Origin: an uncultured Rikenellaceae bacterium
GTDB lineage: Bacteria; Bacteroidota; Bacteroidia; Bacteroidales; VadinHA17
DNA: 64,000 nucleotides
Assembly (NCBI GenBank): GCA_964419775.1
Contig: CAYQRF010000002.1
Location: forward strand, 7,837-71,836
Direction: 5' to 3'
In this document: piece after piece, positions 22,878-59,861 of the stretch
Layout: each line of letters opens with the position of its first letter
Numbering within the stretch: position 1 is the first letter of the stretch
The notes under the pieces: generated by a model
Databases searched by the model: none
The model's input: only the letters and a program-made list of their open reading frames with translations
Told to the model about the DNA's origin: nothing
Translations under genes and position numbers: made by a program

Positions 22878-24203
22878 TTACTGATAATACTCCATTATCC
22901 TTCCGGAAATAAGCATAAGCGATATTTCCGCCAGCTTCGCCTGATACTCGACTGAGAGCAGGCTTTCGCGGGCGTCGAGGAGGCTTTTCTGAACTTCCCT
23001 CAGGTCAATTCCCGACAAACTTCCAAGCTTATACCTTTCCATTGCGATCTCGAGGTTCTCGCTTGCGGTCTGAAGGTTCTGGTTCTCGAGGGTAATCAGT
23101 CTCAGGTAATTGCTGTAAGCGCTGTAGAGAGTGATCAGGTCAGCTCTCACACCCTGCTCAACTTCCTGGTACCTCAGTTCCCTGTTCTGAATTTCAATTT
23201 CAGCGTTTTTTATGCTTCTCCTCTGGTTCAGACCGTCGAAAATATTCATGCCAAGAGTAAGTCCGTAGTTCATTCCGTTGGTGTTCTGACGCTCCATGGT
23301 CCCTGCAGAGTAATTGTTCAGGGTGGTTGTATATCCCGAGGATGCATTAAGATAAGGATAACTTCTTGAAACTACCAGTTTCCGGTCAAACTCCGAAATC
23401 GTTTTGTTTTTTAAGGCAATCAGGAGGCTGGTATTATTTGTAAGTGTCTCATCAAGCAGCTTCTCAAAAAGAAGCTCGGGATTTACTGAGATGGCGGTGT
23501 CGCTGGTGGAAAACAACTGACTCAGGTCTTCAACTGCCATCAGCTCATTAAGGCGGATCTGGGCAGCCCTGACCACTTCGGTCTGACGCGAAAGCCTTGA
23601 ACTGTCGGCATTGAGGTAAACCCTCGACTGCAATACCTGAAGTTTTGAGCTGGATCCAAGAAGATAGCGGTCCTCGTCAATCCTTAGTCGTTCCTTGGAA
23701 AGAGTTACGGCATACTGAAGATTTTTCAGGAGCATCGTCTGCTCAATATAATTATAGTATGCTGAAATTATGCCCGAGACAAGGTTCTCAACCGAAAACT
23801 GGGTGTTAAGCTCTCCGATCTGTTTCAGTTCATTGAGCTTTTTATAGGTAGTCTGAACATTGAAACCGTTGAAAATCGTCATTCCCATTGAAAGGCCGGC
23901 ATTTGCAGTTGCTGTATGCTCCCCGTTTGACTCTGTTTCAGTTCCGTCGGTGAAGTTTCTTCTGGTGCTGTTAATATTTCCGCCGTATCTGCCTGAAAGG
24001 TCAAGAGAGGGAAGAAACCCGGCATTTCCAAGGGTGAAGTTGTTAAGCGCCACTTCCTCGCTGTTTTTGGAAATCAGCAGTGAGTAGTTCTTTTCGAGTC
24101 CTATACTGATACATTCATTGAGATCGTAAACGATCTGGGCACCGGAATTTATGCTGACTGCCAGGAACAGCAGGCTAGGCAACAGCAGTTTTAGTTTCAT
24201 CAT
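22878..24203 (-). CDS. TolC-family outer membrane efflux protein
   Basis: Signal peptide MMKLKLLLPSLLFLAVS, then two OEP repeats. It is the last gene of the RND operon. The track start at 24254 overlaps the RND gene, so the ATG at 24203 or 24200 is preferred. Confidence 0.85.
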   Translation of the reverse strand: MMKLKLLLPSLLFLAVSINSGAQIVYDLNECISIGLEKNYSLLISKNSEEVALNNFTLGNAGFLPSLDLSGRYGGNINSTRRNFTDGTETESNGEHTATANAGLSMGMTIFNGFNVQTTYKKLNELKQIGELNTQFSVENLVSGIISAYYNYIEQTMLLKNLQYAVTLSKERLRIDEDRYLLGSSSKLQVLQSRVYLNADSSRLSRQTEVVRAAQIRLNELMAVEDLSQLFSTSDTAISVNPELLFEKLLDETLTNNTSLLIALKNKTISEFDRKLVVSRSYPYLNASSGYTTTLNNYSAGTMERQNTNGMNYGLTLGMNIFDGLNQRRSIKNAEIEIQNRELRYQEVEQGVRADLITLYSAYSNYLRLITLENQNLQTASENLEIAMERYKLGSLSGIDLREVQKSLLDARESLLSVEYQAKLAEISLMLISGRIMEYYQ

Positions 24204-27200: not shown

Positions 27201-27228
27201 GGTTTATACTTGTCGATGATAGACTCAT
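24175..27228 (-). CDS. RND multidrug efflux permease (AcrB/HAE1 family)
   Basis: 1017-aa ORF with 12 TM helices and two large periplasmic loops. N-terminal INRPVLATVFAIVIVLFG. Confidence 0.95.
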   Translation of the reverse strand: MSLSSTSINRPVLATVFAIVIVLFGIVGATFLGIREFPSVDPAIISVNTSYPGANSDVIETQITEPLEQSINGIPGVRTLTSVSSQGSSRITVEFELSVDLETAANDVRDKVSQAQRRLPRDCDPPTVTKADADANPILFLTVESNKRSLLQLSEIADLTLKEQLQTVSGVSAVNIFGEKRYSMRLWIDPVKLAGYGLTPMDVRDAISRENVELPSGSIEGTTTQLTIRTLGLMTTPKQFNDLIIKQTGDQIVRFQDVGRAELGPEDIRGILKNNGVPMAMIAIIPQPGSNHIEIVDEIFRRLEYIRKDLPDDVQVNVNYDNTAYIRSSIKEVEDTIFIAFALVVVIIYFFLRSWRATIIPILVIPVSLVGAFFIMYLAGFTINVLTLLALVLAIGIVVDDAIVVMENIFVKVESGMPPLEAGLTGSKEIYFAIISTTITLVSVFFPIVFLEGITGRLFREFGMVMAGTVTISAFLALSLTPMVSTKLLRQEKSHTWIFRKTEPFFIGMNEWYRRNLETFLKNRRFALIILVVSIGLIGLLWFTIPGEMAPLEDRSQITINTSAAEGATYEYMLAYVDDLAELVEDRVPERLSYTSMVRGGTFANIRINLVGPDERSRSQQEIADRLSIDVRSKTKARAFVQQQSTFGQRRMGMPVQYVLQATDIEKLREVIPPFMNKVNDSEVLQMADVNLKFTKPELRIHINREKAITLGVSTQNIGQTLQLALSGQRFGYFFMNGKQYQILGELARENRNKPLDLKSLYVRSNKGEMIQFDNLVTLSEETAPPQLYRYNRFVAATVSAGLVPGKTISEGIEEMDRIADEVLDESFRTALAGDSKDYTESSSSLMFAFMLALILIFLVLAAQFESFKDPFIVMMTVPLALTGALIFMWYFNITMNIFSQIGLIMLIGLVSKNGILLVEFANQRKAAGLNKVDAIKSAAASRFRPILMTSLATIFGLLPLALGLGEGAQSRVAMGITVVGGMMFSTFLTLFVVPAIYTYISSEPKNKDDETKTAVA

Positions 27229-27247
27229 TATTTGATTTGTGTTTAAA

Positions 27248-28354
27248 TTAATTTACAACAAGGGTATCAAGCACCACGGGAAGATTTTGTCTCAACTGAA
27301 GTATGCCTGAAGTAAGAAGCGTGTCGCCGAACTTGAGGCCGCTTGTTATCTGAACCTGTGATTCCGTTCTGAGTCCGACACCCACTTTCAGGACTTCTGC
27401 CTTGCCATTACGGTACACGTAAACCATTTCTCCCTCCATTTCAGGAGTGATTGCTTCGGTCGGAACAGAAATGGCATCATCGATCTGTGAAAGCAAAAGA
27501 GTAACCGATGTGAAACGTCCGGGTTTCAGTTCTTCATTGTTGTTAGGATAAAGAGCACGCAGAACAATTGACCGTGTTGCTATATCAACCTGCGGATCGA
27601 CAGCATATACTTTTGCATTGTATACATCGTTTGAACCGTCCATCGTAAATGTCACGGGATAACCGATTTTAATCTGATTTGCATAACGTTCGGGAATCGT
27701 GAATTCAATTTTTATGGGTTTGATCTTTACCAGCCTTGCAATTTTTGTCGATGGATTGGTATAGCTTCCTTCACTTACGTACCTGAGACCAATTATGCCG
27801 TCAAACGGGGCACGAAGCTCAGTCTCTGCAATCCTGGCACCCACAAGGTTGATATCAGCCTGAATGGTCTGAAGCTCCGTTACAATCTGATCGTAACTTT
27901 CCTGGCTTATTGCATCCTTGTCGAGCAGGCTGCGCTGGCGGAATTCCTTTTCTTCTATGAGTTTTTTCTGGGCCTGCAGTTTTTCGAGCTGGGCCTGAAG
28001 GGGTCTGTCATTGATTTTTGCAAGCAGATCACCCTTTTTTACACGGGTTCCTTCGGTAAAATTGATGCCCACAATTTTCCCTGAAGTTTCAAAAGCAAGC
28101 TCTACAGTCTCGTCAGGCTTTAATGTACCGGTACTCACATAGAGGTCGCTCATTTGCTGAGGTTTTATTAAATACCCGCTGACATTGAGAACTTGCCGTC
28201 CTGCCCCTCCGGGTCCTCCTCCGGCAGTCATTCCCGGTCCGCCCGGACCACCTGACTTCGACGAGAAGATTGGTTTTATTTTAGGATAGAATACAATTAC
28301 TGCAGCCACAAGGATAAGCAGAATTGTTATGATCAGTCTGTTTCTTTTCTTCAT
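27248..28354 (-). CDS. RND efflux periplasmic adaptor (membrane fusion protein)
   Basis: 368-aa ORF with a TM anchor, a Gly/Pro-rich linker (GGPGGPGMTAGGGPGGAG), and biotinyl-lipoyl-like and beta-barrel segments. It is the first gene of the operon. Confidence 0.9.
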   Translation of the reverse strand: MKKRNRLIITILLILVAAVIVFYPKIKPIFSSKSGGPGGPGMTAGGGPGGAGRQVLNVSGYLIKPQQMSDLYVSTGTLKPDETVELAFETSGKIVGINFTEGTRVKKGDLLAKINDRPLQAQLEKLQAQKKLIEEKEFRQRSLLDKDAISQESYDQIVTELQTIQADINLVGARIAETELRAPFDGIIGLRYVSEGSYTNPSTKIARLVKIKPIKIEFTIPERYANQIKIGYPVTFTMDGSNDVYNAKVYAVDPQVDIATRSIVLRALYPNNNEELKPGRFTSVTLLLSQIDDAISVPTEAITPEMEGEMVYVYRNGKAEVLKVGVGLRTESQVQITSGLKFGDTLLTSGILQLRQNLPVVLDTLVVN

Positions 28355-40736: not shown

Positions 40737-41573
40737 TCAGGTAGGACTCATAGTACTCGAAAATTCGTTGATTGAATTATCGCGGTTTACAGCTGCCGCG
40801 ACAGGTATGGAGAAAAAGATGGAAGAACCTGTTCTTCCGTTGTTCTCAATCCAGAGCGATCCGTCCATCATCCGGATCAGTTTGCGTGCAAGGGCCATGC
40901 TTACAGCCATATGGATGTCGTTAAACTTCGCAAGTGATTCTGATATATCCCTGCTGTGAAGAAATTCCCTGCATTTCAGGTAACCCTGACCCGAATCAGT
41001 GATGCAGAACCTGAGATGGCCATCAGCAATGTTATAGCCGACTTTAATATACCCTGATTCAGTGTTGCTCAAAGCGATCTGGAATAAATTGCGAATTACC
41101 CTTGTCACCCTGTTGGCATCAAAGAGGCAGTCAGGACTCTGGCAGGTCAAATTGTCGGATACAAGAAGCAGATCCTTGTATCTTTCCTTTTGAAGTATTT
41201 CCCTGAACTCTGAAAAAAGACCAGCGAACATCTCACCCGTATGCACTACTCCCGGTTCCGAAATTGAATTACCCGTATCAATGATTGCGGAATCCAGGAA
41301 ATTGTCAAAAAGTGAAATAATCTGTTCGCATGAATTATATATGTGATTGCTGAATTCTTCCCGCTCGGCTTCGCAATATTCCTTCTTGTTCATCATGAAT
41401 GAAAATGCAACTATTGCGTTCATCCGGGTCCTCATTTCGCGCGACAGCTCAGTCAGCACTGTGGAACAGCCCGATACCGGTTCAATCAAATGATCTCCGT
41501 TTCTGGCCTGATCCCTTTTTACAGGAACCGGATCACCCGAATCACCCCTCATATGCCCAAAAAGGTCGAACAT
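40737..41573 (-). CDS. cytoplasmic histidine-kinase-like protein lacking the phospho-acceptor His (degenerate HisKA + HATPase_c)
   Basis: The H-box position reads LSREMRTRMNAIVAFSFMM, against the canonical SHELRTPLNAI, so Arg replaces His. An N-box-like NLFQIALSN and a G1-like DSGQGY are present. The G2 region (MAVSMALARKL) has no glycines, and there is no TM segment. Confidence 0.65.
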   Translation of the reverse strand: MFDLFGHMRGDSGDPVPVKRDQARNGDHLIEPVSGCSTVLTELSREMRTRMNAIVAFSFMMNKKEYCEAEREEFSNHIYNSCEQIISLFDNFLDSAIIDTGNSISEPGVVHTGEMFAGLFSEFREILQKERYKDLLLVSDNLTCQSPDCLFDANRVTRVIRNLFQIALSNTESGYIKVGYNIADGHLRFCITDSGQGYLKCREFLHSRDISESLAKFNDIHMAVSMALARKLIRMMDGSLWIENNGRTGSSIFFSIPVAAAVNRDNSINEFSSTMSPT

Positions 41574-41601
41574 TTTAATCCTGTTAAGGTTAGATGGACA
41601 A

Positions 41602-42357
41602 TTATTTCAGGTATCTGAGAATTTTCCTTGCTTCTTTTCTGTAGATGGTCCTTGAATCTTCAATTGTTGCCAGCTGGCTGACTGCCTTGACTGTCTCACC
41701 TGTCTTCAGATAACAAAGGGCAAGGTACCACTGTGCATGGTCAATATAGAAGTTGTTATTATCTTCTATGACTTTTGAGAATGAATCGCTTGCTTCAGGA
41801 TAATTCTGTGTTTCAAATTTTGAAATGCCATTAAGCAGTTCGGTATGCATGTCGCCCGGATTTTCTGCCAGGACCCTGGAGAAGTAGATTGCGGCGTTCC
41901 TGTAATCCCTTACGTTGTAGTATTCCACGCCAAGCCTGAAATTATCCGAATTTGATGCCATGTTTGCCGAACGCGATATTGTCGCCACTTCATAAGGTTT
42001 GTAGTAGCGGCTTATTATCTCGTCGGTCTCAGGCTTTCCCCGCGACAGCAATGCGATGCTTCCTATTATTACCAGGCTGGCTATCGCGGCAGCGAATCTT
42101 ATATTAAGCGGCTTCCGTGGTTTTACTTCGGGCACCGGCTCTTTACGCTGCTTCTCAATAGCATTCAGCTTGTTGCGCAGATTCATTATATCCCGGTCCT
42201 TCAGAATCATATCGGTCCTGCTGCGCAACTCAACCTCCCGGCGAAGCTTCTCATTGCCTTCCAGCTCTTTTCTGAACCATTCCTTTTCAGCTTCATCCAT
42301 CTCACCGGCATTGTACCGTTCGATAAAGTATGAAAAATCAATTGTCTTCATAGCCAT
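41602..42357 (-). CDS. single-pass membrane protein with cytoplasmic anti-sigma-like N-domain and extracytoplasmic TPR domain
   Basis: The start is MAMKTIDFSYFIERYNAGEMDEAEKEWFRKEL (ATG at 42357 or 42351). A TM helix FAAAIASLVIIGSIALL sits near residue 100, and TPR-like repeats follow (YYNVRDYRNAAIYFSRVL, YLALCYLKTGE). Confidence 0.6.
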   Translation of the reverse strand: MAMKTIDFSYFIERYNAGEMDEAEKEWFRKELEGNEKLRREVELRSRTDMILKDRDIMNLRNKLNAIEKQRKEPVPEVKPRKPLNIRFAAAIASLVIIGSIALLSRGKPETDEIISRYYKPYEVATISRSANMASNSDNFRLGVEYYNVRDYRNAAIYFSRVLAENPGDMHTELLNGISKFETQNYPEASDSFSKVIEDNNNFYIDHAQWYLALCYLKTGETVKAVSQLATIEDSRTIYRKEARKILRYLK

Positions 42358-42564
42358 ATAATGTTTAAGTATATATCCAATTATCATCCATTCAGACTGA
42401 TAGCATGTACATACCTGATGCACGGGCTACAGCACTCCGAATGCAATTCCACTGCCGGGAAAAAATTCTTCCAGCCCGGCTGAAATTCAATCAACCAAAA
42501 ACAACCTTCTGCCGTTTAAACAGAACCCTGCCTTCACTAAGACAGAACCGGCAGCTATATTTTT

Positions 42565-42699
42565 TCAGATCTGAACAGGAGGCAATGAGGGTTTCAGAAT
42601 AGGATCGGCATCACCGCCTTTCACACAAATCATTTCTTCAACTGTCAGAGCATAGACATCAAGAGTCACATCGTGGTTTTTTACGTTCAGGGAGTTCAT
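42565..42699 (-). CDS. double-glycine (GG) leader peptide precursor, 44 aa; predicted mature 15-mer DADPILKPSLPPVQI
   Basis: Hand translation gives MNSLNVKNHDVTLDVYALTVEEMICVKGG/DADPILKPSLPPVQI, then a stop. It has GG at -2/-1, hydrophobic residues at -4, -7, -12 and -15, and EE at -9/-8. It falls below the size cut-off of the ORF track. A C39-ABC exporter and HlyD partner are in the same locus. Confidence 0.7.
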   Translation of the reverse strand: MNSLNVKNHDVTLDVYALTVEEMICVKGGDADPILKPSLPPVQI

Positions 42700-42946
42700 A
42701 GTGCTGATTTTTTTACATTGATACTTATTTCGGGTAATTCGCAATTTTTAAGTCAAATTCTATGTATCATGTCGGAATACCCCGTTTTGTGACAATGAAA
42801 ATTGAATTATTTTTAATAAATTTTCTTATATCAAGATAATCAGCAATATACAAAACAGGAAAAACGGGCACACAGACCTTCATAATAACATTTTTTGTAA
42901 ACTTGCGTTTTGGCACTGGGGAGAGACAAATAAATCAGCGACCTTA

Positions 42947-45900
42947 ATGTTTTCAGGCATCTTCATAAAGTCATTATTGGTATTTTTCATTTCTGCTGTC
43001 AGTATTCAACTGGAATCTGGAGTTACGGATACCAGTCAGGAGCTTGCCCGATTGAATGAGGCCTTTCATGCAACTATTGCAGCCGGCGACACCGCCGGAT
43101 CGAGGGATATTCTTAATTCAATCCTGAAGATGCTCAGTGAGGATAGTGCTGAAAATATCACCGTCGCAAATTCACAGTATTATATCGGTGTCTATTATCT
43201 GCTGAACGGCAGGAACAAGGAAGCTGTCAACTGGCTGGGTTCGTCGGTATCGATCCGTGAACAGACAAAGACTGTTGACGAGGTGTATGCAAAGAGCCTC
43301 TTTAATCTGGCCCTGGCACATTCCCGGCGCGGAGATTTCAAAAAGATGGAGGAAAGCATACTCAAATCTCTTGATGCTAAAAAGTCCATGTATGGCGGGA
43401 ACAGTCCCAGACTGCTCGACGGATATTCCGCATTGACGGGAGCCTGCATCAGCCTGAAGGATTACAGCCGGGCAATAGAATACGGGAATAAGGCACTCGA
43501 CCTTATAGGGGATGACAGGAATGAACATATTAACGAACTGGCGATCCTTTATGTGAATATCGGCATAAGCCATGCCTTTATGTCAGATTATGCAAAAGCG
43601 GTAATGTTCCTTGAAAGGGCAGAAGCATTGTACCGGACCAGCTCCCTTCCCGGGGATGAAAACTATATTAACCTGCTTAACAGCCTTGCCTCCAATTACC
43701 ATTTCCTGGGACAGCGCGAAAAATCCGAACAATATTTCAACAAAGGTTTCAGTTTGATAAGCTCGGCAAATTCCGATTTGTCGCTGAATTTTCTGAACAG
43801 CTTTGCAATAAACATGGGAAACGCCGGAGAGGTGTTAAAAGGGGAGAAACTCCTGGCCGGATCACTTGACAAGGCCGGAAAGATATTTGGTCAAAGATCG
43901 AGGGAATACTGCGAGATGCTCAGGAATTACGCCGAATATTACAGAAGTTTCAATCTGAATATAGGTAAATCAATTGCATTATTTGAAAAGTGCAATGAAT
44001 TGCTTAAGGACAACGCAGAGGATCTTGCATTGAAAGAATCTGTTCTGCTCGGATATGCCCAGGCTCTTTCAGAAAACGGGGAGAATGTAAAAGCTCTTGG
44101 GATAATTCAAAATCTTCTTTTCGAAGGCCGGGAAGGGACAAACGGAGGTTCGGGACTTGAAAATCCCGATCCGGCTTTAATTGAACCTACTCAATGGTCG
44201 CTAAGGCTGCTCAGGGCAAAATACCGCATACTCCATGGGATCTACAGGAAAGAGCCTGATCAGAGCTACCTTCTGGCTGCAGCCGGGACGTCCGAACTGA
44301 TAGTATCCCTGATTGAAAAGGTCAGGATAAGCATCAGTGAGGAAGAGAGCAGGCTTGTGCTCGGCGACAGGTTCAGGGATTCCTATCTTCACGCCATCCG
44401 CGATCTTGACCGGTGTTACCGTATAACCGGCGACATCAGATATCTGCACAAGGCTTTTGAATATTCCGAAAAATCGAAGGCTGCCGGCCTTCTGGCTTCA
44501 ACAAGGGAACTAAGGGCAACAGAGTTTCATATTCCTGAAGAAACTGCGGAACTGGAACGAAGGCTTAAAATGGAAATTGGATTTTATGAAGCCAGAATAA
44601 ATGAGGAAGAATCAAAAAAAGAAGGTGATGTCTCCCTTATAGAGGAATGGAAGGACCTTCTGCTGACGGCCACACAGCGGCGGGATTCTCTGATTGCTGT
44701 CTTCGAGCGTATGTATCCCGGTTATTATCATATCAAATACAATACTGAGGTTATTTCACCCGAAAAGATCCCGGGCATTTCGGGAAGGAACACCAACTAC
44801 CTCAATTATGTTGTGTCCGACAGCCTCCTTCATATTTTTGTTGTAAACCGGAAGCACTTCCGGCTTGTCACGGTAAACATTGACTCAACTTTTTTCAGTG
44901 ATATCCGGCAATTCCGGACTCTTCTGTCGGAACCTGACAATAATGCCCGTACAGGTTTCAACAGATACCTTTCAACAGGCTACAGGCTTTACCGGACTGT
45001 CATTGAGCCTGTGAAGGAATATCTGATTTCAAACAGCCTGCTGATCTCTCCCGACAACATTCTTTCCTACATACCATTTGAAGCACTTCCTGTCAGCGCT
45101 GAAGCCGGGAACCTTGCCATGTTCACCCGGATTCCATATCTCCTGAGGGATTACATGGTCTCCTATACCTATTCCGCCACAATGCTCGCTGAATCAGTCA
45201 CCAGCGATCACAGTTTTTCAAACTCACTTGTAGCCTTTGCCCCAAGCTATAACGGGAGGATCGATGTTGACTCACTTATGAAGTCAAGGCAATCAAGGGT
45301 GTCAACCCTGTACGACCTTAAATTTGCCAGGACCGAGGCTGAATATGTTGCGGAACTCACAGGAGGCAGGCTTTATCTCGACAATGACGCGAAAGAATCG
45401 GTTTTTAAAACCGTTGCATCTGAATATGATATTATTCATCTTGCAATGCATACCTTGCTGAACGACCAGGATCCGATGCATTCAAAGATGATTTTTTCGC
45501 AGGATGACGATACTCCGGAGGACGGCAACCTTAATACCTGGGAGGTTTATGGGATTCCGCTCAAGGCAAAAATGGTTATACTAAGCTCCTGCAATACCGG
45601 AAGCGGTTCCCTGAATTCAGGCGAAGGCATACTGAGCCTTGCCAGGGGCTTTGTTTACTCAGGATCCAGGTCAGTTGTCATGTCAATGTGGGAAATAGAA
45701 GACAGGTCGGGTGCCGAGATAGTGAATAAATACTACAGGAACATCAAACATGGAGCGTCCAAAAGCATGGCGTTGCGAAAGGCAAGGCTTGACTATCTTA
45801 AAAATTCCGACATGCTGCGATCTCATCCGTATTACTGGTCGTCGCTGGTTGTTTACGGAAACAATACACCAATTTATTTTTCAGTATGGCTGAAAGTTGG

Positions 45901-45964
45901 AGCGGTAATGCTTCTCCTTGTTATTTCTGTCCTGCTGTTCCTGATTTATCGGAAATCAAGGTAA
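42947..45964 (+). CDS. TPR-repeat CHAT-domain (caspase-like) protease with N-terminal signal/anchor and C-terminal TM helix
   Basis: 1005-aa ORF with many TPR-like repeats in the first 400 aa or so. The CHAT His motif is YDIIHLAMHT and the Cys motif is MVILSSCNTGSG. The C-terminal TM helix VGAVMLLLVISVLLFLIY is followed by RKSR. Confidence 0.85.
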   Translation: MFSGIFIKSLLVFFISAVSIQLESGVTDTSQELARLNEAFHATIAAGDTAGSRDILNSILKMLSEDSAENITVANSQYYIGVYYLLNGRNKEAVNWLGSSVSIREQTKTVDEVYAKSLFNLALAHSRRGDFKKMEESILKSLDAKKSMYGGNSPRLLDGYSALTGACISLKDYSRAIEYGNKALDLIGDDRNEHINELAILYVNIGISHAFMSDYAKAVMFLERAEALYRTSSLPGDENYINLLNSLASNYHFLGQREKSEQYFNKGFSLISSANSDLSLNFLNSFAINMGNAGEVLKGEKLLAGSLDKAGKIFGQRSREYCEMLRNYAEYYRSFNLNIGKSIALFEKCNELLKDNAEDLALKESVLLGYAQALSENGENVKALGIIQNLLFEGREGTNGGSGLENPDPALIEPTQWSLRLLRAKYRILHGIYRKEPDQSYLLAAAGTSELIVSLIEKVRISISEEESRLVLGDRFRDSYLHAIRDLDRCYRITGDIRYLHKAFEYSEKSKAAGLLASTRELRATEFHIPEETAELERRLKMEIGFYEARINEEESKKEGDVSLIEEWKDLLLTATQRRDSLIAVFERMYPGYYHIKYNTEVISPEKIPGISGRNTNYLNYVVSDSLLHIFVVNRKHFRLVTVNIDSTFFSDIRQFRTLLSEPDNNARTGFNRYLSTGYRLYRTVIEPVKEYLISNSLLISPDNILSYIPFEALPVSAEAGNLAMFTRIPYLLRDYMVSYTYSATMLAESVTSDHSFSNSLVAFAPSYNGRIDVDSLMKSRQSRVSTLYDLKFARTEAEYVAELTGGRLYLDNDAKESVFKTVASEYDIIHLAMHTLLNDQDPMHSKMIFSQDDDTPEDGNLNTWEVYGIPLKAKMVILSSCNTGSGSLNSGEGILSLARGFVYSGSRSVVMSMWEIEDRSGAEIVNKYYRNIKHGASKSMALRKARLDYLKNSDMLRSHPYYWSSLVVYGNNTPIYFSVWLKVGAVMLLLVISVLLFLIYRKSR

Positions 45965-46545
45965 TCCTTGTATTCCGGGTCGGATTTCACCAGCTCCATC
46001 AGCGCTTCTTTACTTAGGTATTTCTTGCGCCTTGCGTAGGTTTCATTCTTCAGATTCATTTTTTCAGCAATCTCCGGGTATGAAAATCCCTCTGAGAACA
46101 GTGAAAGAATAGTCTGCGCATCATCGCTCAGCTTTCTGAAAGCACGGCTGACAATGCTTTCAAGCAGCAAACCCGGATCATCACCTTCGTCATCATCAGG
46201 ATAATCACTATCAATTCCGGTATTTCTCATCCTTTTTCTCAGCTGTGCATTCCATACATTCCGTGCAATTCCGTAAAAATAACCCCTGAGGTCAGTCGTG
46301 AGCTTAAAACCATCTGACGTAATCTGACGATAAAGTGTAATAATGGATTCCTGGAACACATCGGCGACATCGGACTCCGACCCGCTGTTCCTGAGCACAT
46401 GATGCCTTACAGTCTCAAGGTAATTATCATAGAGCCAGTTCAGTATCTGATCATCCTGTTGCCGGATTCCATCTACTATCGTACTATCTGAGATTCTTCG
46501 GAACAATTGCTGATTTTTTGCCCGGATAAATTGACAAATATACAA
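45946..46545 (-). CDS. sigma-70 family (ECF-type) RNA polymerase sigma factor
   Basis: Region 2-like DVADVFQESIITLY...YFYGIARNVW and a region 4 HTH (FSEGFSYPEIAEKMNLKNETYARRKKYLSKEAL). There is no in-frame ATG near the 5' end; candidate TTG starts are at 46545 and 46506. The 3' end overlaps the CHAT gene by 19 nt. Confidence 0.8.
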   Translation of the reverse strand: MYICQFIRAKNQQLFRRISDSTIVDGIRQQDDQILNWLYDNYLETVRHHVLRNSGSESDVADVFQESIITLYRQITSDGFKLTTDLRGYFYGIARNVWNAQLRKRMRNTGIDSDYPDDDEGDDPGLLLESIVSRAFRKLSDDAQTILSLFSEGFSYPEIAEKMNLKNETYARRKKYLSKEALMELVKSDPEYKDYLDFR

Positions 46546-46667
46546 TTTCCCGCGACCGAAAGTATCGAACTGTCAGCGCTGGAGGTACTCAAATTAACAA
46601 TTTAAGGCATTTCTGATAAATAATAAATATATTTACTCCTCTTAATTAAACGGTTAGGTACTGGAAA

Positions 46668-48854
46668 ATGTTATTCCCCTTTGTAAAACAACATGATGCA
46701 ATGGATTGTGGCCCCGCCTGCCTCAAGATGATAGCGGCGTATCACGGGAAAAACTTTTCAATGGATTACCTGCGAAAGAAATGTTACATAACGAAGGAGG
46801 GTGTATCCTTCCTGGGTTTGTCAGAGGCTGCAGATTCTGCAGGATTCAGGACAATGGGGATTAAAATACCCTTTGAGGTGCTCCGGGAAAAAATCGCACT
46901 CCCATGTATAGTTCACTGGCGTCAGAAACACTTCGTGGTTGTTTACCGGATCAGGAAAGGAAAAATATATGCAGCGGACCCTGCGACCGGACTTGTAACC
47001 TATACTCAGGATGAATTCGAAAAGAACTGGGCAGTCACAATGGTCGACGGTAAGCCTGCCGGCCTGGCTCTGACCGTTGAACCGACTCCCTCGCTTTACA
47101 GCCTCGATGACCAGCCGGAAAAGACAGGAGGCTTCAGGTTCCTTCTGAAATACTTCAGGCTGTACAGGAAATATTTCGGTCAGCTTCTCCTGGGGCTGCT
47201 GATCGGTAGTTGCATCCAGCTGATTTTCCCTTTCCTCACCCAGTCAATAATTGACATCGGGATCAACAATAATGACCTGGGATTCATTTACCTGATACTG
47301 TTTGCCCAGCTGGCCCTGATACTTGGCCGAATGTCGGTTGAATTCATCCGCGGATGGCTGCTCCTTCATATCGGATCGAGAGTTAACGTTGCCGTGGTTT
47401 CCGGATTTCTGAACAAGCTGATGTCGCTTCCCGTGGCTTTTTTTGACACCAGGCTCACAGGCGATATAATCCAGCGAATTGACGATAACCACAGGATAGA
47501 GGATTTTCTTACATCAGCCAGTCTCAGTATATTGTTTTCATTTGTAAATCTTGTTGTGTTCGGCATAGTGCTCGCCGCCTTCAGCCTGAAAATATTCCTG
47601 ATTTTCCTTGCGGGAACAGGCCTGTATATTCTGTGGGTTTCGCTGTTTCTCAAACCAAGGGCGAAGCTGGATGATCTACGATTCAGGGAAATGTCAGTAT
47701 CAGGTTCGAAGCTGATTAATATCATCAACGGAATGCAGGAGATAAAACTGACCCAGAGCGAAACAAGCAAGCGCTGGGACTGGGAAGTCCATCAGGCATC
47801 CCTGTTTTCCCTTAAGGTTAAAGGTCTGGGGCTTATTCAGTACCAGTCGGCCGGTGCCACCCTTGTCAACGAGGTAATGAATATTTTCATAACGATTTTT
47901 GCGGCAACAGCTGTTCTGAAGGGACAAGTGACGCTGGGTATGATGCTTGCAGTTCAGTTTATAATCGGACAGCTCAATATTCCTGTTAACCAGATCATCG
48001 GCTTCTTTCGCATGTCGCAGGATGCCAGGATCAGTCTCGACCGTCTCGCTGAGGTTCATAATATGGAAGATGAGGAACCTTTGCCTGAGGAAAAGCTTCA
48101 GCAAATGCCGGACGACCGGACCATCAGGATTAACAATCTTGCGTTTCAGTATGAGGGTCCCCGTTCGCCCTATGCCCTGAAGGATATCACTCTGGATATT
48201 GAACCGGGAAGGACTGTGGCAATTGTTGGCACAAGCGGCAGCGGTAAGACAACTCTACTGAAGATGCTTCTTGGATTCTATCAGCCGGTTAACGGAAACA
48301 TAACTGTTGGAGGCATCAGTCTGTCGGACATAAGCTTGCGGCTCTGGAGGAATAAGACAGGAGCGGTAATGCAGGATGGATTCCTGTTTCCCGACACTAT
48401 AGCCGGCAATCTTGCCCCGGGGGCTGCGGCAATTGATGAAGCCAGGCTTCGTGAAGCGGTTGAAACAGCCAACATAAGGGAATTCATAGAATCTCTCCCC
48501 CTGGGATACAATACCAGGATCGGTGCAAATGGCCACGGCCTCAGTGAAGGCCAGAAACAAAGGCTGCTGATAGCCCGGATTGTATACAAGGACCCGGAGA
48601 TAGTCCTGTTCGATGAAGCCACAAATTCACTCGATGCAAATACTGAAAAGGCAATCGTTGAAAACCTGTCAGGATTCTTCAGAAACAAAACGGTTGTCAT
48701 TGTAGCCCATCGTTTGAGTACAGTCAGGAATGCTGACAAAATAGTGGTTCTTGAGGGAGGCCGGATCATTGAAACCGGAAACCACCGGGAACTTGTCGAA
48801 AGCAGAGGTGCTTATTACAACCTGGTAAAAAACCAGCTGGAACTGGGGAATTGA
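46668..48854 (+). CDS. peptidase C39 domain-containing ABC transporter (PCAT; GG-leader peptide cleavage/export)
   Basis: The N-terminal C39 domain has Gln/Cys (KQHDAMDCGPACL), His (RQKHFVVV) and Asp (AADPATG). It also has six TM helices, Walker A GTSGSGKTT, signature LSEGQKQR, Walker B IVLFDEAT and H-loop VAHRLS. Confidence 0.9.
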   Translation: MLFPFVKQHDAMDCGPACLKMIAAYHGKNFSMDYLRKKCYITKEGVSFLGLSEAADSAGFRTMGIKIPFEVLREKIALPCIVHWRQKHFVVVYRIRKGKIYAADPATGLVTYTQDEFEKNWAVTMVDGKPAGLALTVEPTPSLYSLDDQPEKTGGFRFLLKYFRLYRKYFGQLLLGLLIGSCIQLIFPFLTQSIIDIGINNNDLGFIYLILFAQLALILGRMSVEFIRGWLLLHIGSRVNVAVVSGFLNKLMSLPVAFFDTRLTGDIIQRIDDNHRIEDFLTSASLSILFSFVNLVVFGIVLAAFSLKIFLIFLAGTGLYILWVSLFLKPRAKLDDLRFREMSVSGSKLINIINGMQEIKLTQSETSKRWDWEVHQASLFSLKVKGLGLIQYQSAGATLVNEVMNIFITIFAATAVLKGQVTLGMMLAVQFIIGQLNIPVNQIIGFFRMSQDARISLDRLAEVHNMEDEEPLPEEKLQQMPDDRTIRINNLAFQYEGPRSPYALKDITLDIEPGRTVAIVGTSGSGKTTLLKMLLGFYQPVNGNITVGGISLSDISLRLWRNKTGAVMQDGFLFPDTIAGNLAPGAAAIDEARLREAVETANIREFIESLPLGYNTRIGANGHGLSEGQKQRLLIARIVYKDPEIVLFDEATNSLDANTEKAIVENLSGFFRNKTVVIVAHRLSTVRNADKIVVLEGGRIIETGNHRELVESRGAYYNLVKNQLELGN

Positions 48855-48864
48855 ACCTTGGAAT

Positions 48865-50193
48865 ATGGAAGAGCCGGAAAAAGATGAGATAGTATATTCA
48901 GAACCCGTTAGAGATCTGATGGGAGCTGTGCCTGGCAGGATACTGAGGTGGGGCACAGGAATTATCATGGCAGTAATGGCCCTGTTTATTTTCTTCCTGT
49001 GGCTTGTGAAATATCCCGACAGGATCCCCGCACCGGTTGAAATTACTACGGTTAACCCGCCTGCCATACTTGTTTCAAAAATATCCGGAAGAATTAACAA
49101 TCTTTATGTGAACGACAGGGACGAGGTCGGGGAGGGCCAGTTGCTTGCAGTGATGGAAACTGCGGCTTCGATAAGCGAAATCAACCATCTCAAATCAATT
49201 GTCGACACTGTCGGTGACCCGGGAAGGTTGCTTCAGAATTCACTCCCCGTTTTTTCAGAGCTCGGAGAGCTGCAGAGTTACTGGAGCTCCTTTCTTAAAA
49301 GCCTGTCTGATTACAGCAACTACAATATCAATGACTTTTACGGCAATAAGATCCTTTCGCTTACAGATGAGATAAACGCTATTCTGGCTTATATCGGAAA
49401 AGTAAAGGTGAAGGAGGATTTGTACTCCGAGAACCAGATGCTTGAAACCAGGAAGTACCGAAGGGATTCGCTGCTTTATTCTGAAGGAGTATACTCTGAA
49501 AGCGAGCTGGAGAAATCACTCCAGGCTCTGATCAGGCTTAACATAGAACTTCAGCAGGTACGGCTCGATCACTCCCAGAAATCAATCGAACTTGCTGAAA
49601 AAAGGCAGTTGCTTCAGGATTACAGAATCAGGGGACTGGAGGACCGGGAAAAGTATTATTCGGTTCTTAGTGAATCTTTTATGAATCTCAGGGCTCAGTT
49701 AAGGATATGGGAAAATACCTATTTGCTTGTATCTCCTGTCGCGGGAACGGTAACACTTACCAGGTTCTGGAGCGAAAATCAGACAGTTGGCAAAGATGAA
49801 CCTGTCATGAGTGTTATTCCCACGGAAACCGGAGACTATGTCGGCAGGATAAGCCTTAAAATGAACCGTTCAGGCAAGGTCAAACCCGGTCAGGATGTCC
49901 ATATCAAATTAAGCGGATATCCGTACCTGGAATATGGGATGGTAAGGGGAGTCGTGAAATCAAAGTCCCTGGTTCCTTCAGCCGATTCGTATATAATAGA
50001 AATATTCCTGCCTCAGGGCCTGACTACCCTGTATGGGAAAAATCTCGATTTTACACAAAATATGCAGGGTACTGCAGAGATAATCACAGAGGACCTTCGT
50101 CTGCTTGAGAAAATTCTCAATCCGGTCAGGCATCTTGTTTCCCGGAACCAGAGCCGGGCTGTTTCCCTGAATAAGGCTCATAGGTATCCCTGA
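48865..50193 (+). CDS. HlyD-family membrane fusion / secretion accessory protein
   Basis: 442-aa ORF with an N-terminal TM helix (GIIMAVMALFIFFLWLV), a long coiled-coil middle and a C-terminal beta domain. It starts 10 nt after the PCAT stop. Confidence 0.85.
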   Translation: MEEPEKDEIVYSEPVRDLMGAVPGRILRWGTGIIMAVMALFIFFLWLVKYPDRIPAPVEITTVNPPAILVSKISGRINNLYVNDRDEVGEGQLLAVMETAASISEINHLKSIVDTVGDPGRLLQNSLPVFSELGELQSYWSSFLKSLSDYSNYNINDFYGNKILSLTDEINAILAYIGKVKVKEDLYSENQMLETRKYRRDSLLYSEGVYSESELEKSLQALIRLNIELQQVRLDHSQKSIELAEKRQLLQDYRIRGLEDREKYYSVLSESFMNLRAQLRIWENTYLLVSPVAGTVTLTRFWSENQTVGKDEPVMSVIPTETGDYVGRISLKMNRSGKVKPGQDVHIKLSGYPYLEYGMVRGVVKSKSLVPSADSYIIEIFLPQGLTTLYGKNLDFTQNMQGTAEIITEDLRLLEKILNPVRHLVSRNQSRAVSLNKAHRYP

Positions 50194-50615
50194 CCGAGTG
50201 CAACGATCCTGTGCCTGCCGGCTTCTGGAAAGGCTGGATTCCTTTTTGTTTTTTTAAATACTTGCGGTACAGGCTTATGCCTACTCCTGCCAATATCGCA
50301 ACTGCAAGGATTATATCGTTGTTTTTCATCTTCTGGTGATTTGAAATTCCGGATATTCCATAAAATTAAATTCCGAATTCAAATATATCAATTATTCCTT
50401 GAACCATTAACCATATTTACACATACTGCCAACTTCTCCGCTACCCCTTGTCATTTCATCAGTTACTGTATTTGTGCCTCATCTGGGTACAATTCTTATT
50501 TTTACATAATAGTTTGAGTTTTAATAAATAATTCAATATTTTCGTAGTCTGAAAAAATCATGGGTTACCATGGTGTGATTTTTTATTGAAGATATTGAAC
50601 CTTAAAGGATTGGAT

Positions 50616-57601: not shown

Positions 57602-57659
57602 CAACACTTGTTGATATCTGTTTCATTTCATTTCGAAAAAATAGCATACTTTTGTAATG

Positions 57660-57860
57660 CTTTGGTGTTGCAATGATATCTTTTTGTCATTGCAATGAAA
57701 AGGGAACGCGGTTGGAATCCGCGACAGTACCCGCTGCTGTGATGCCTGATCACGCAAAGCGTGATGATGGTTTCGGGATAACCTGCCACTGTGAGCTCAT
57801 CGCCATGGGAAGGCTTCCTGAAATCGGGACAAGTCAGAAGACCTGCCAGACATATTAATA
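57660..57860 (+). promoter_or_regulatory. cobalamin (B12) riboswitch
   Basis: Conserved core AAAAGGGAACGCGGTTGGAATCCGCGACAGTACCCGCTGCTGTGA, then GCCACTG, then the B12 box AGTCAGAAGACCTGCC at 57832-57847. It is preceded by an exact TACTTTTG -7 motif at 57647-57654, and a TonB receptor/BtuFCD-like operon lies downstream. Confidence 0.85.
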
Positions 57861-57944
57861 TTCAACGCTTTCGGGAAGAAAAGCTAAGAATCATCTTGTG
57901 ATTCACGTCTTTCCCAACCCGTCAGCAAAAAATTAGTAAGTGCC

Positions 57945-59861
57945 TTGAATAAAGTCTTTCTGTTTTTTGCTTTGATGCTGTCACTTCAGATGAACGGCCA
58001 GACCTGGAGCCAGGATGATGCAATACTCATCGGTGAGGTAAGGGTGAGGGCTGAATCTGACAAGCGCGATTACGTTGGTTTCAAGTCAACCCACCTCGAT
58101 TCTGCCCTTCTGTCACAGTATAATCATCATACAATTGCCGATCTGCTGTCGGGCAACTCGGTGATCCATATAAAATCATATGGCTCGGGTGGTCTTGCAA
58201 CACCATCGTTCAGGGGAACCGGACCCAGTCATACCAGGGTCTCCTGGAATGATGTGAATATCAACTCTCCGATGCTGGGCCAGTTCGATCTGTCACTCAT
58301 TCCCGCCGGCTTCATCGACGGAGTGAATATTTACTATGGAGCAGGATCAATGGGCATTAACAGCGGAGGCTTCGGCGGGGTAATCGACCTGGAAACAGAA
58401 GTAAAATCATCTGACAACAACGGAATCACAATCAATCCCGGTCTGGGAAGTTACGGACGATTTACCGGCCTTATTAAGGCCGGAACCGGAAATGACAGAT
58501 TCCGGTCGGTCACAAAGGCTTTCCTGAGCGATGCAAAAAACAATTATCCCTACACAAACAACGTCTCGGAAGATTCTCCGAAAAAGGAAAGAAGGGAAAA
58601 CAACGAAGTGAGCTCGGCCGGTTTTATCCAGGAACTGTATCTTTTAAACCCCGATAACACCCTTTCGGCAAGGATCTGGTACCAGTCGGCATCAAGGAAC
58701 CTGCCTGTGCCGATAATAAGTCCCTCACAGAATCCTCCCGAAAAACAGGATGATGAATCGCTGCGGGCCATGATTTCATACACCGGCGACCTTAAGGAAG
58801 CCGACATCGGCATTACAGCTGCATTCATTGCCGACAGGCTCCGGTATAACAATGAGCTTGCTTCGATAAGGTCTGTTAATAATTCCCGGACGTTCACGCT
58901 GAAAGGCAGTTATAAAAGGAGAATCAACAGGTTTATTTTAATGGAGGCTGCATTCAATGATGAACTGAGCCATGTCAGCACTAGTAATTATAATGGTAAC
59001 AAGTCAAGAAATCTTGCCTCTTTCGACCTTCTGGCAGAGTCAATGCCGGCGTCATGGCTTTCGGCCAGACTTCTTGTCAGGGAACTGCTTCATGATGACA
59101 TACTGCTGAGTCCTGATTTCTCGCTGAGTACTGAATTCAGACCCTTTTCCCGGAAATATTACTTTTTCAAGGCAAGTGTTTCAAAAAACTCAAAGGTACC
59201 CACCCTGAACGATATGTACTGGTCGCCCGGCGGCAATCCTGACCTGAGGAACGAAACCGGCTGGTCAACCGAACTGACCTGGGAAATGACCAGTTTTCAT
59301 AATGGCCCGTTCAAGGTTAAAAACGACATTACCTTCTTCAGGAATGATATCAGCAACCTCATACAATGGCGCCCCGGTGAATTCTCCTTCTGGGAAGCCG
59401 TCAATCTTGGCTCTGCCCTTACAACCAGCCTTGAAACCGGAGCCGACGTAAGCTATTCATCAGGTAAAGCAGATCTCAGGCTGATCGCCAATTATGTTCA
59501 CACCTTAGCCAGGTCGCGCGAATCTTACCCTGAAAACTACACATCGGATAGGGCGCAGCTGATATATGTACCTGAAAATCAGTTGAATTTTCTTTTCAGA
59601 TTGAACTGGCTTAATTTCTTTGCTTCTTTCAGGACCGATTATACAGGCAGAAGATATATCACTGCCGACAACTCCGCTTATCTTCCTCACTATGCCGTAA
59701 GCGGTATTAATGCCGGCACCAGGATCGAGGGGAATCATCATTCAGTAGATATTTCCATTTCAGTTGATAACCTGTTCAATGCCGCGTACCAGAACATTGC
59801 ATACTATCCGATGCCCGGCAGAAACTTTTCTTTATCTCTCGCATATCAGTTTAAAAAATAA
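57945..59861 (+). CDS. TonB-dependent receptor (BtuB-like, B12-riboswitch controlled)
   Basis: Signal peptide, plug domain (GGLATPSFRGTGPSHTRVSWNDVNINSP) and a C-terminal beta-barrel ending in YYPMPGRNFSLSLAYQF. The start is probably the TTG at 57945, because the next ATG would remove the signal peptide. Confidence 0.85.
   Translation: MNKVFLFFALMLSLQMNGQTWSQDDAILIGEVRVRAESDKRDYVGFKSTHLDSALLSQYNHHTIADLLSGNSVIHIKSYGSGGLATPSFRGTGPSHTRVSWNDVNINSPMLGQFDLSLIPAGFIDGVNIYYGAGSMGINSGGFGGVIDLETEVKSSDNNGITINPGLGSYGRFTGLIKAGTGNDRFRSVTKAFLSDAKNNYPYTNNVSEDSPKKERRENNEVSSAGFIQELYLLNPDNTLSARIWYQSASRNLPVPIISPSQNPPEKQDDESLRAMISYTGDLKEADIGITAAFIADRLRYNNELASIRSVNNSRTFTLKGSYKRRINRFILMEAAFNDELSHVSTSNYNGNKSRNLASFDLLAESMPASWLSARLLVRELLHDDILLSPDFSLSTEFRPFSRKYYFFKASVSKNSKVPTLNDMYWSPGGNPDLRNETGWSTELTWEMTSFHNGPFKVKNDITFFRNDISNLIQWRPGEFSFWEAVNLGSALTTSLETGADVSYSSGKADLRLIANYVHTLARSRESYPENYTSDRAQLIYVPENQLNFLFRLNWLNFFASFRTDYTGRRYITADNSAYLPHYAVSGINAGTRIEGNHHSVDISISVDNLFNAAYQNIAYYPMPGRNFSLSLAYQFKK

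Follow-up and report, generated by a model that had tools for sequence, protein, structure and literature searches.

The 64-kb window analysed here, the whole 64,000-nucleotide stretch of contig CAYQRF010000002.1 from an uncultured Bacteroidales genome, carries at positions 40737-50193 a locus of seven open reading frames (ORFs), encoding an extracytoplasmic function (ECF)-type sigma factor, an anti-sigma-like membrane protein (ASl), a TPR-CHAT protease, a double-glycine (GG)-leader peptide, a kinase-like protein, a peptidase-containing ABC transporter (PCAT) and an HlyD-family accessory protein. This module is real, widespread and uncharacterised, and known systems of two kinds are combined in it. 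The wider Bacteroidota family of which it is a member has three parts: an ECF-type sigma factor, the zinc-less single-pass ASl and a membrane-anchored TPR-CHAT protein predicted to face the periplasm. The original prediction that these genes form a functional unit is upheld, since sigma factor, ASl and TPR-CHAT recur together in distant Bacteroidota with other flanks and in other orders. We see about an even chance that the locus serves as a module of envelope signalling that is inherited vertically, that most likely exports a short peptide and in which the CHAT protease, acting outside the inner membrane, releases the sigma factor. The seven genes are as follows:

40737-41573, minus strand: histidine-kinase-like protein (278 aa, soluble), with dimerization and histidine-phosphotransfer (DHp) and catalytic ATP-binding (CA) domains; HATPase_c 2e-08, HisKA 3.5e-05 (below cutoff)
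41602-42351, minus strand: anti-sigma-like protein ASl (249 aa); TPR_2 1.3e-08, NF052375 'antisigma' 0.0058
42565-42699, minus strand: GG-leader precursor of 44 aa, with a 29-aa leader and the 15-aa core DADPILKPSLPPVQI; the ORF is called on metagenome contigs
42947-45964, plus strand: TPR-CHAT protease (1005 aa); TPR_12, and CHAT at E 1.8e-54
45946-46506, minus strand: ECF-type (group 4) sigma factor (186 aa) with sigma2 and sigma4; TIGR02937 3.6e-14, Sigma70_r2, Sigma70_r4_2
46668-48854, plus strand: PCAT (728 aa) with C39 peptidase, transmembrane domain and nucleotide-binding domain; Peptidase_C39 1.8e-37, TIGR01193 1.5e-124
48865-50193, plus strand: HlyD-family membrane-fusion/accessory protein (442 aa); HlyD_3 6e-06, TIGR01843 9e-22

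All seven ORFs were found where they had first been placed and with the domains then assigned to them, apart from revisions of gene boundaries. The sigma factor gene is of ECF type as proposed; its strand and start had to be corrected, as it lies on the minus strand and begins with TTG at 46506, and a longer sigma ORF would take in the conserved -7 box TATATTTG (46542-46535). This gene is convergent with the CHAT gene and divergent from the PCAT gene in the window. The protein formerly given as 41602-42357 is present, with its start moved to MKTIDFSY at 42351 (249 aa). The PCAT start was set at 46668 because Gln8 is invariant.

The evidence for a functional unit comes from distant lineages. 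A search of 1.8 billion representatives with an ASl profile led to 255 clusters (50% clustering) at E<1e-30; ASl has 911 homologues, and its length is constant. In the distant contexts with enough DNA, the sigma orthologue adjoins ASl, and these contexts delimit a core of sigma factor plus ASl, nearly always together with the TPR-CHAT protein. The GG peptide accompanies this core in Bacteroidales and Marinilabiliales, and the kinase-like gene and the PCAT/HlyD pair, though often nearby, are optional and lie outside the invariant core. The sigma and ASl genes overlap by 8-17 nt in four lineages other than that of the window. In L090 and L091 the sigma gene runs 11 nt into the start of ASl, with CHAT convergent, and in L098 the overlap is 8 nt; in L096 it is 17 nt, and genes for a kinase, a protein with a type IX secretion system (T9SS) tail and CHAT point towards the ASl and sigma genes; in L097 it is 10 nt, and an S8 peptidase gene and CHAT point towards the genes for an ASl-like protein and an ECF sigma factor.

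Gene orders vary among the other relatives. In L092 and L093 the sigma gene is followed by CHAT and, divergently from it, by the genes for GG peptide, ASl, kinase-like protein and PCAT, which puts the exporter on the opposite side of the module compared with the window; in L092 the PCAT gene lies directly 3' of the kinase-like gene. In L094, which belongs to the cultured species Puteibacter caeruleilacunae, the sigma gene, a 132-aa ORF and ASl point towards CHAT, which in turn is divergent from the GG-peptide gene; its flanks, rhamnose-biosynthesis and RlmL genes, are unrelated to those of the window, and no PCAT was found within 10 kb. No exporter or small transmembrane (TM) protein gene was present within 10 kb of the Marinilabiliales loci, which have peptide, sigma factor, ASl and CHAT. 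In L095 (7407-11530) a sigma gene convergent with CHAT is followed by the peptide-ASl pair twice, the two peptides being identical and the two ASl copies 94% identical. The layout and the promoter motif of L099 are the same as in the window. One further ASl/sigma pair, P0260, adjoins an island of CD-NTase, TIR-STING, GmrSD, TIR and Mrr genes; this recalls the control of CBASS by DdvS/DdvA and might be a coincidence.

Comparative genomics within the main clade, as had been suggested earlier, was carried out as a scan of one genome per species and returned 80 loci, all from Bacteroidales metagenome-assembled genomes of fens, sediments, digesters and biofilms; 59 of these loci have enough DNA for the whole module. 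The genes for CHAT, sigma factor, PCAT and HlyD were each found, and found together, in 59/59 complete loci, the peptide ORF in at least 57/59 and the kinase-like gene in 54/59, being missing from five. Gene order and strands were identical in 54/54 loci, and median identities across loci ranged from 48% (CHAT) to 74% (PCAT). Moreover, an identical CHAT protein is carried in the same arrangement by 21 metagenome contigs. Since the flanking genes are syntenic too, this layer shows that the locus is part of the core genome and vertically inherited, and does not show that its genes are functionally linked.

The sigma factor has E. coli sigmaE and M. tuberculosis SigL as its best PDB relatives, and sigma4 is its best-conserved part. 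The original prediction had the sigma factor drive the locus. The regulatory DNA does not bear this out; the elements concerned are the following:

42528-42545, minus strand: stem-loop that lies between the genes for peptide and ASl and is a candidate for an attenuating terminator or an RNA-stabilising element; consensus CCTGYTTT-AGCG-AAARCAGG
42769-42794, minus strand: promoter-like element in two parts, TGTCACAAAAC-N8-CCGACAT(G), about 70 nt 5' of the peptide ATG and conserved at unchanged spacing in at least 67 loci; candidate for the promoter that the sigma factor of the locus targets
46535-46542, minus strand: housekeeping-type Bacteroidetes -7 box TATATTTG, 28 nt 5' of the start codon of the sigma gene; 69 loci share the conserved block GGAAATACTATATTTGCCAATTG
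46628-46636, plus strand: -7-like box TATATTTAC, 31 nt 5' of the start codon of the PCAT gene; the block is conserved across 69 loci

The peptide operon is preceded, about 50-70 nt 5' of the peptide ATG, by the motif TGTCACAAA(A/T)Y-N8-CYGACATGTA, which can be read as TGTCAC-N17-CATG(T/A)A. The window holds no other good copy of it, and it occurs nowhere else in the 20-kb loci. In distant lineages a T-tract with a G(T/C)(C/T)AC element lies 5' of the peptide genes. The sigma and PCAT genes carry boxes of the TAnnTTTG type instead of the peptide-operon motif, and TAnnTTTG is the -7 consensus of promoters read by sigmaA, the housekeeping sigma factor of Bacteroidetes. No motif of the peptide type was found upstream of the sigma, CHAT and PCAT genes, in the window or in the distant lineages, apart from a loose resemblance at the L098 sigma gene. 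The idea of a sigma factor driving the locus was therefore dropped, the special motif being confined to the peptide operon and the sigma and PCAT promoters being housekeeping-like. We infer that the sigma factor is made constitutively and controlled post-translationally, and that its local target would be the peptide-ASl-kinase operon. In most loci a stem-loop with compensatory changes lies 20-40 nt 3' of the peptide stop codon; its folding had a median z of -2.0, with z<-2 in 37/73 loci compared with 13/73 for a control window. This suggests high expression of the peptide and lower expression of ASl and the kinase-like protein from one promoter.

ASl consists of a cytoplasmic three-helix domain without zinc site, resembling an anti-sigma domain (ASD; residues 1-68), a basic linker, a TM helix at 84-102 and periplasmic TPRs at about 103-249. 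The 15 residues that precede the TM helix have a net charge of +2 to +6, and this positive charge places the N-terminus inside and the TPRs outside. The N-domain is the best-conserved part of the protein (74% compared with 56% for the periplasmic part), and its AlphaFold2 (AF2) model shows three helices with a pLDDT of 79. When 350,542 PDB chains were searched with Foldseek, only four matched at E<=10, and all four are class I anti-sigma domains, of RslA (3hug) and RsiW (5wuq), at E values of 3-8 that are not significant; the rmsd was 1.2-1.4 A over 41 and 47 columns in the two best matches, and the remaining two had 6.3 A. Profile matches are weak as well: zf-HC2 matched 3/12 ASl members (best E 0.003), and NF052375 'antisigma' gave 2.5e-4 for the L097 protein in addition to the value listed for the window. 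At the positions of the HxxxCxxC zinc motif, ASl has F-R-K-E-L-E-G-N-E-K-L, with neither His nor Cys, and the missing zinc ligands rule out membership of the zinc-binding anti-sigma (ZAS) subclass. Class I anti-sigma factors without zinc, such as RseA, do exist. Judging from its topology, its modelled fold, the weak profile matches and the overlap of sigma and ASl genes, ASl is likely, if unproven, an anti-sigma factor.

No anti-sigma factor was found among PDB sequences with the profile of the ASl N-domain. Homology to Nif11, suggested by the best match, was not accepted, the match being taken as a shared helical pattern. Nif11 domains act as leaders of GG-cleaved peptides, and the match of ASl may be a mere helical likeness. 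Between the TM helix and the TPRs, at residues of about 116-130, ASl has a juxtamembrane periplasmic motif, YYxPYE-x5-(S/V)RS(G), whose Tyr, Arg and Ser are invariant even in distant relatives. Speculatively, this YYxPYE...SRS segment is a candidate site for recognition or cleavage by a protease.

The CHAT protein has an N-terminal signal-like segment, about 570 aa of TPR and other helical repeats, a caspase-fold CHAT domain, a C-terminal TM anchor and an RKSR tail. Its catalytic dyad, His835/Cys882, is invariant in 66/66 orthologues. The hydrophobic signal-like segment is present in 63/63 orthologues once start codons are corrected, the C-terminal TM helix is present in all, and the tail beyond it is net positive in 63/64; the bulk of the protein should accordingly face the periplasm, which agrees with the orientation first proposed. 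The AF2 model (pLDDT 82) matched separase, Csx29/Craspase and DdvA (8rw5, 8rot) in Foldseek at E values of 1e-12 to 1e-13. At the sequence level, phmmer against PDB sequences found only kinesin-light-chain TPRs, and the kinship with DdvA, Csx29 and separase is visible by fold alone. Of the large domains of the protein, the N-terminal TPR region varies most, at 42% identity.

The precursor in the window reads MNSLNVKNHDVTLDVYALTVEEMICVKGGDADPILKPSLPPVQI, and its leader ends in ...LTVEEMICVKGG. This leader follows the GG-leader pattern, ...V(-15)YAL(-12)TVEE(-8)M(-7)ICV(-4)KGG, which is conserved in 73 loci. Orthologous peptide ORFs were indeed found in 73 of the 80 loci; in 65 of them the leader has 29 aa and ends in ...EEMIxV(K/R)GG. 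The core has 13-17 aa, with an acidic N-terminus and the tail [KL]-P-x-x-P-P-[IV]-[KIR]-[IL]-COOH, in which the Pro at -5 and the C-terminal Ile/Leu are invariant. Its net charge is -1 or 0, Cys almost never occurs, and the 73 loci have 71 distinct cores. In other lineages the leader MKTLFAN...L(T/S)xxEL..KGG is kept and the cores are unrelated, short and acidic, examples being YGRDADVLVDPDKR, KSADAYMDLN and a poly-Pro 25-mer. TIGR01847 (bacteriocin_sig) recognises the related L087 peptide above its cutoff, and the window peptide had no match in NCBIfam or Pfam. By its sequence, the short acidic Pro-rich core, with a conserved C-terminus and species-specific variants, resembles a signal more than a pore-forming bacteriocin.

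Some genomes carry more than one copy of the peptide gene, with five identical tandem copies at a 196-bp period in L072 (8993-9905, plus strand) and two divergent copies in L075 (9486-9802). In L059 (9558-9668) the promoter motif is kept and the peptide ORF seems degenerate, with the core DSQRSNT; in L071 (around 9872) the motif is kept and no peptide ORF was found. A decaying peptide gene, or else errors in sequencing, may explain both cases. In partial Mantel tests, which are inflated by phylogeny, leader distances correlated with those of the C39 domain after removal of the rest of the PCAT (r=0.27, reached in 0/500 permutations) and did not correlate with those of ASl or of the CHAT TPR region, and core distances tracked ASl, CHAT and sigma factor (r 0.2-0.3), not C39. 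Such covariation fits a PCAT that would read the leader and a sensor set that would follow the core.

The domains of the PCAT are Peptidase_C39 (1.8e-37), ABC_membrane (1.4e-27) and ABC_tran (1.3e-32); Gln8 and Cys14 are invariant in 61/61 orthologues, and the catalytic site is intact. The HlyD-family protein has one N-terminal TM helix at residues 30-48. As had been noted before, the module encodes no outer-membrane factor. The only one in the window is a TolC-family outer-membrane efflux protein 16 kb from the PCAT, encoded within an RND operon (22878-28354, minus strand) together with a membrane-fusion protein and an AcrB-family pump. Next to the exporter genes lies a further small ORF, absent from the earlier gene list:

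50126-50329, minus strand: 67-aa single-TM protein (MKNNDIILAVAILAGVGISLYRKYLKKQKG...), called on metagenome contigs and found by tblastn in at least 40 species loci, each time at the corresponding position

It overlaps the 3' end of the HlyD gene convergently and is possibly an eighth component of the module.

The kinase-like protein had been described as lacking the phosphoacceptor His. This is correct for the window, where the H-box reads SREMRTRMNAI, and not for the family, in which 48/70 orthologues keep His and 22/70, including that of the window, have Arg; loss of the His is a derived state confined to a sub-clade. In the window protein, moreover, the N-box Asn is replaced by Ile and the G1 box (DSGQG) is retained. 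The N-box Asn is lost in a subset of orthologues, most of them retain both His and Asn, and the G2 box is absent from 70/70. No hydrophobic segment was found in the protein, which is soluble, and no receiver domain is encoded in the locus. These H-box and N-box substitutions, together with the absent G2 box and the missing receiver, rule out a two-component sensor kinase in the window. The best PDB relative is RetS, which signals by binding to and heterodimerising with another kinase, not by phosphotransfer. Kinase-like homologues adjoin the core in L092 and L096, and the L096 homologue is much more canonical than that of the window. The protein is best seen as an accessory component that is dispensable in some relatives.

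The base composition of the locus is unremarkable, and the genes that flank it are of housekeeping type (5'-nucleotidase, QueE-like radical SAM protein, OmpA-family protein, DUF349 protein, CTP synthase and YidC). The Rfam scan gave no match in the locus; elsewhere in the window an ordinary cobalamin riboswitch (RF00174, 94.9 bits) lies at 57647-57864 (plus strand), 5' of the gene for a TonB-dependent receptor at 57945-59861.

A complete signalling loop, a peptide-pheromone circuit resembling quorum sensing, can be proposed for the module, and we put it forward tentatively, as a possibility: a peptide of about 15 residues, exported by the PCAT, would be read by a periplasmic TPR domain, the CHAT protease would cut the anti-sigma factor in trans, the freed sigma factor would auto-induce the peptide operon, and the variable cores would represent pherotypes. 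In such a loop the PCAT would cut after Gly-Gly and release a linear, unmodified peptide, as its domains and the covariation of leader and C39 suggest. The constitutively made sigma factor would be held at the membrane by the ASl N-domain, for which the gene overlap in other lineages and the fold speak. By analogy, the periplasmic reader of the peptide may be the TPR domain of ASl or that of the CHAT protein. By analogy to DdvA and RseA, reading of the peptide would license a site-1-type cut of ASl by CHAT, perhaps at YYxPYE...SRS, and intramembrane proteolysis by a site-2 protease would complete the release of the sigma factor. The motif TGTCAC-N17-CATGTA points to the peptide-ASl-kinase operon as the transcription unit that the freed sigma factor would read. 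Output of peptide would then act as positive feedback and newly made anti-sigma factor as negative feedback, and the soluble kinase-like protein might be an accessory cytoplasmic modulator.

Several observations weigh against this interpretation. The sigma and ASl genes of the window are not adjacent to each other and not co-oriented; CHAT lies between them and they belong to separate operons. Synteny in the 80 loci extends to the housekeeping flanks, whose identity is similar, and the conservation in the main clade is thus little independent evidence. The spacing of the peptide-operon motif, the only local candidate for a target promoter, does not fit the canonical ECF geometry AAC-N16-CGT, and the sigma factor is apparently not autoregulated, which is unusual for ECF systems. 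As for ASl, its Foldseek matches to anti-sigma domains are not significant, the best PDB sequence match of its N-domain profile is a Nif11-domain protein (9zn4_A, E 9e-4), and the ASl proteins of Marinilabiliales (about 500 aa) bear three to four tandem repeats of the N-domain before the TM helix, unexpected for an anti-sigma factor (P0145, P0154 and P0272 in L087, L090 and L094; Puteibacter caeruleilacunae, Sunxiuqinia and Prolixibacteraceae are among the carriers). The Mantel tests, besides their inflation by phylogeny, gave similar values for all module proteins and did not discriminate between the TPRs of ASl and those of CHAT as the tracker of the core. Finally, L096 and L097 carry the core and a scan for the GG-ORF pattern found no peptide there, and P0260 (JGI 3300075153) has ASl and sigma factor without CHAT; neither the peptide nor CHAT is therefore obligatory for the sigma/ASl pair.

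Four other explanations were considered. The sigma/ASl/TPR-CHAT set might sense a different stimulus at the envelope (damage, phage or a secreted protein, for example), with the peptide as an output that acts elsewhere without feedback. We regard this as rather unlikely. It would account for the only local candidate target promoter preceding the peptide gene and for the core without GG peptide in L096 and L097, where a gene for a T9SS-tailed protein or an S8 peptidase precedes CHAT; DdvA, too, is thought to sense a phage-related protein cue, and one sigma/ASl pair stands beside a CBASS/TIR-STING island. It is at odds with the position of the peptide gene, which is co-oriented with and directly 5' of ASl in most lineages and was duplicated together with it in L095, with core distances that weakly track ASl, CHAT and sigma factor rather than the PCAT, and with the two predicted periplasmic TPR domains, since TPRs are classic peptide binders and the locus offers no other ligand candidate. 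An improbable alternative would have CHAT act on the peptide, by a second maturation cut or by quorum-quenching degradation, or on other periplasmic proteins, with ASl being inactivated by direct binding of a ligand, for example, or by a DegS-like protease whose gene lies elsewhere. The variability of the CHAT TPR region (42% identity) is what would be expected if it tracked a variable peptide, CHAT forms a divergent pair with the peptide gene even in loci with ASl elsewhere, such as L094, and Lys/Arg is frequent at core positions -9 and -2. Against these points, CHAT stays with sigma factor and ASl where no GG peptide was found, the known TPR-CHAT proteases (separase, Csx29 and, as proposed, DdvA) act by cleaving protein regulators, which sets a factor free, and a core of 13-17 residues leaves scant room for further processing.

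The original prediction had named a bacteriocin-like role as its alternative. In a bacteriocin locus the GG-leader peptide would be antimicrobial, PCAT and HlyD would export it, a small membrane protein would confer immunity and the sigma/anti-sigma set would be regulatory. A GG leader with PCAT and HlyD is the classic export set of class II bacteriocins and microcins, the conserved 67-aa single-TM protein beside the exporter could be the immunity protein, and the peptide gene is amplified in some genomes. We consider this quite improbable because the core is short (13-17 residues, and 10-25 in the remaining lineages), Pro-rich, acidic or neutral, not amphipathic and free of Cys, because the scaffold is kept in some 70 species, in which the gene is single-copy, part of the core genome and fixed in chromosomal position, unlike toxin/immunity islands with their fast turnover, and because the Marinilabiliales loci combine peptide, sigma factor, ASl and CHAT with no exporter or small TM gene within 10 kb. 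The genes might also be neighbours through clade synteny alone, without any functional unit; the flanks (5'-nucleotidase, QueE-like, OmpA-family and DUF349 genes) are likewise conserved across the 80 loci, with comparable identity, as such an explanation would have it. This is hardly credible, since no fewer than six other lineages have sigma factor, ASl and CHAT together again, usually with peptide, kinase or PCAT, in different flanks, orders and strands and with cases of overlapping sigma-ASl genes, and since these rearranged contexts already contradict it.

Peptide-based cell-cell signalling is textbook knowledge for Firmicutes, and to our knowledge no established case exists in Bacteroidota. 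If the proposed loop is true, it would be a third way of reading peptide signals, besides membrane histidine kinases and cytoplasmic RRNPP receptors, and would work via regulated proteolysis of an anti-sigma factor by a periplasmic caspase-like enzyme. The hypothesis is testable, as the family includes the cultured Puteibacter caeruleilacunae, and the conserved core motif with its 71 species-specific variants provides ready-made synthetic peptides.

Literature searches found no description of this Bacteroidota module. It shares features with several known systems. The RRNPP receptors (Rap, NprR, PlcR, PrgX, AimR) have in common with it that TPRs bind, or here are proposed to bind, a short linear ribosomal peptide. 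They are cytoplasmic, rely on re-import by Opp, are fused to helix-turn-helix (HTH) or phosphatase domains and occur in Firmicutes and phages, and none of this applies here. Membership is ruled out, as both TPR domains are predicted to be periplasmic, no HTH was found and the AimR match in the CHAT N-terminus is sub-threshold (E 3.7e-4, 20.2 compared with 26.7 bits).

Its domains and leader place the export half in the PCAT/GG-peptide class, of the ComC/ComAB type. Like ComC/ComAB and BlpC/BlpAB of streptococci and CvaAB/colicin V of E. coli, it has a GG-leader precursor, a PCAT with active-type C39 domain and an HlyD-type accessory protein, together with a short, apparently unmodified mature peptide and a probably auto-induced precursor gene. 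The difference lies in the sensing: instead of a membrane histidine kinase with its response regulator, a route of sigma factor, anti-sigma factor and protease in the periplasm of a diderm is proposed here; the kinase-like protein of the module is soluble, degenerate and without a receiver partner, and no outer-membrane factor is encoded with it.

In type III-E Craspase, the TPR-CHAT protease Csx29 cuts Csx30 and thereby frees the RpoE-like CASP-sigma (PMC10028731). The module shares the genetic tie of a TPR-CHAT protein to an ECF-like sigma factor and a sigma inhibitor, the fold (Foldseek match to Csx29 at E of about 3e-13) and, as proposed, the logic of a protease that cuts an inhibitor to release a sigma factor. 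Here, by contrast, the protease is membrane-anchored and predicted to face the periplasm, the inhibitor would be a transmembrane TPR protein instead of Csx30, and the trigger cannot be RNA. No cas-like genes, and no Cas7-11/gRAMP, were found among the genes called within 10 kb on either side, and this missing context, along with the signal sequence and the TM anchor, rules out membership.

With RseA/sigmaE the module has in common a predicted single-pass anti-sigma factor with its N-terminus inside, a proposed extracytoplasmic site-1 cut and an ECF sigma factor whose best PDB relatives include sigmaE. It differs in that the site-1 protease would be a caspase-fold CHAT enzyme, not the serine protease DegS, that the trigger would be a self-made exported peptide, not C-termini of outer-membrane proteins, and that its sigma factor is apparently not autoregulated. 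ECF54 comprises ECF sigma factors with carboxypeptidase, subtilase and CHAT neighbours, for which proteolytic control has been proposed (PMC8999054); a CHAT protein conserved beside an ECF sigma factor is the shared feature, and ECF54 is described without an anti-sigma factor.

The closest precedent, not cited in the original prediction, is DdvA/DdvS of Myxococcus xanthus, in which an ECF sigma factor is held by an anti-sigma factor that spans the membrane and has a periplasmic TPR-CHAT part (PMC11506125, PMC6061681). Self-cleavage by the CHAT domain has been proposed as the site-1 step, and fused DdvA-like proteins have been reported only in Myxococcota and one Comamonas (PMC11506125). Both systems combine control, predicted in the case of the module, of an ECF-type sigma factor at the inner membrane by a small helical cytoplasmic anti-sigma or anti-sigma-like domain with a large periplasmic TPR-CHAT part of the separase/craspase type that has a His-Cys dyad (Foldseek 8rw5/8rot, E of about 2-3e-12). 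DdvA is a single chain, whereas ASl and TPR-CHAT are separate genes in 59/59 complete loci and in the distant contexts; ASl moreover bears a small TPR domain of its own, and a C-terminal helix serves as the anchor of CHAT. The ASD-like domain of ASl lacks the CHCC zinc site and shows no sequence-level similarity, and the dyad, described as incomplete or resting in DdvA, is invariant. No defence island lies near the module, and PADLOC gave only generic ABC-ATPase matches to the PCAT in the locus and no system match, which led us to reject a defence-island reading for the window. Its division over two polypeptides, the lack of a zinc site and of sequence similarity, the other phylum and the missing defence island rule out a DdvA-type system proper. 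In our best reading, the module of Bacteroidota would work like a split DdvA/DdvS coupled to an exported GG peptide and its PCAT; if this is true, it would give the DdvA field a candidate ligand that is encoded beside its sensor, and a natural split version for tests of cleavage in trans.

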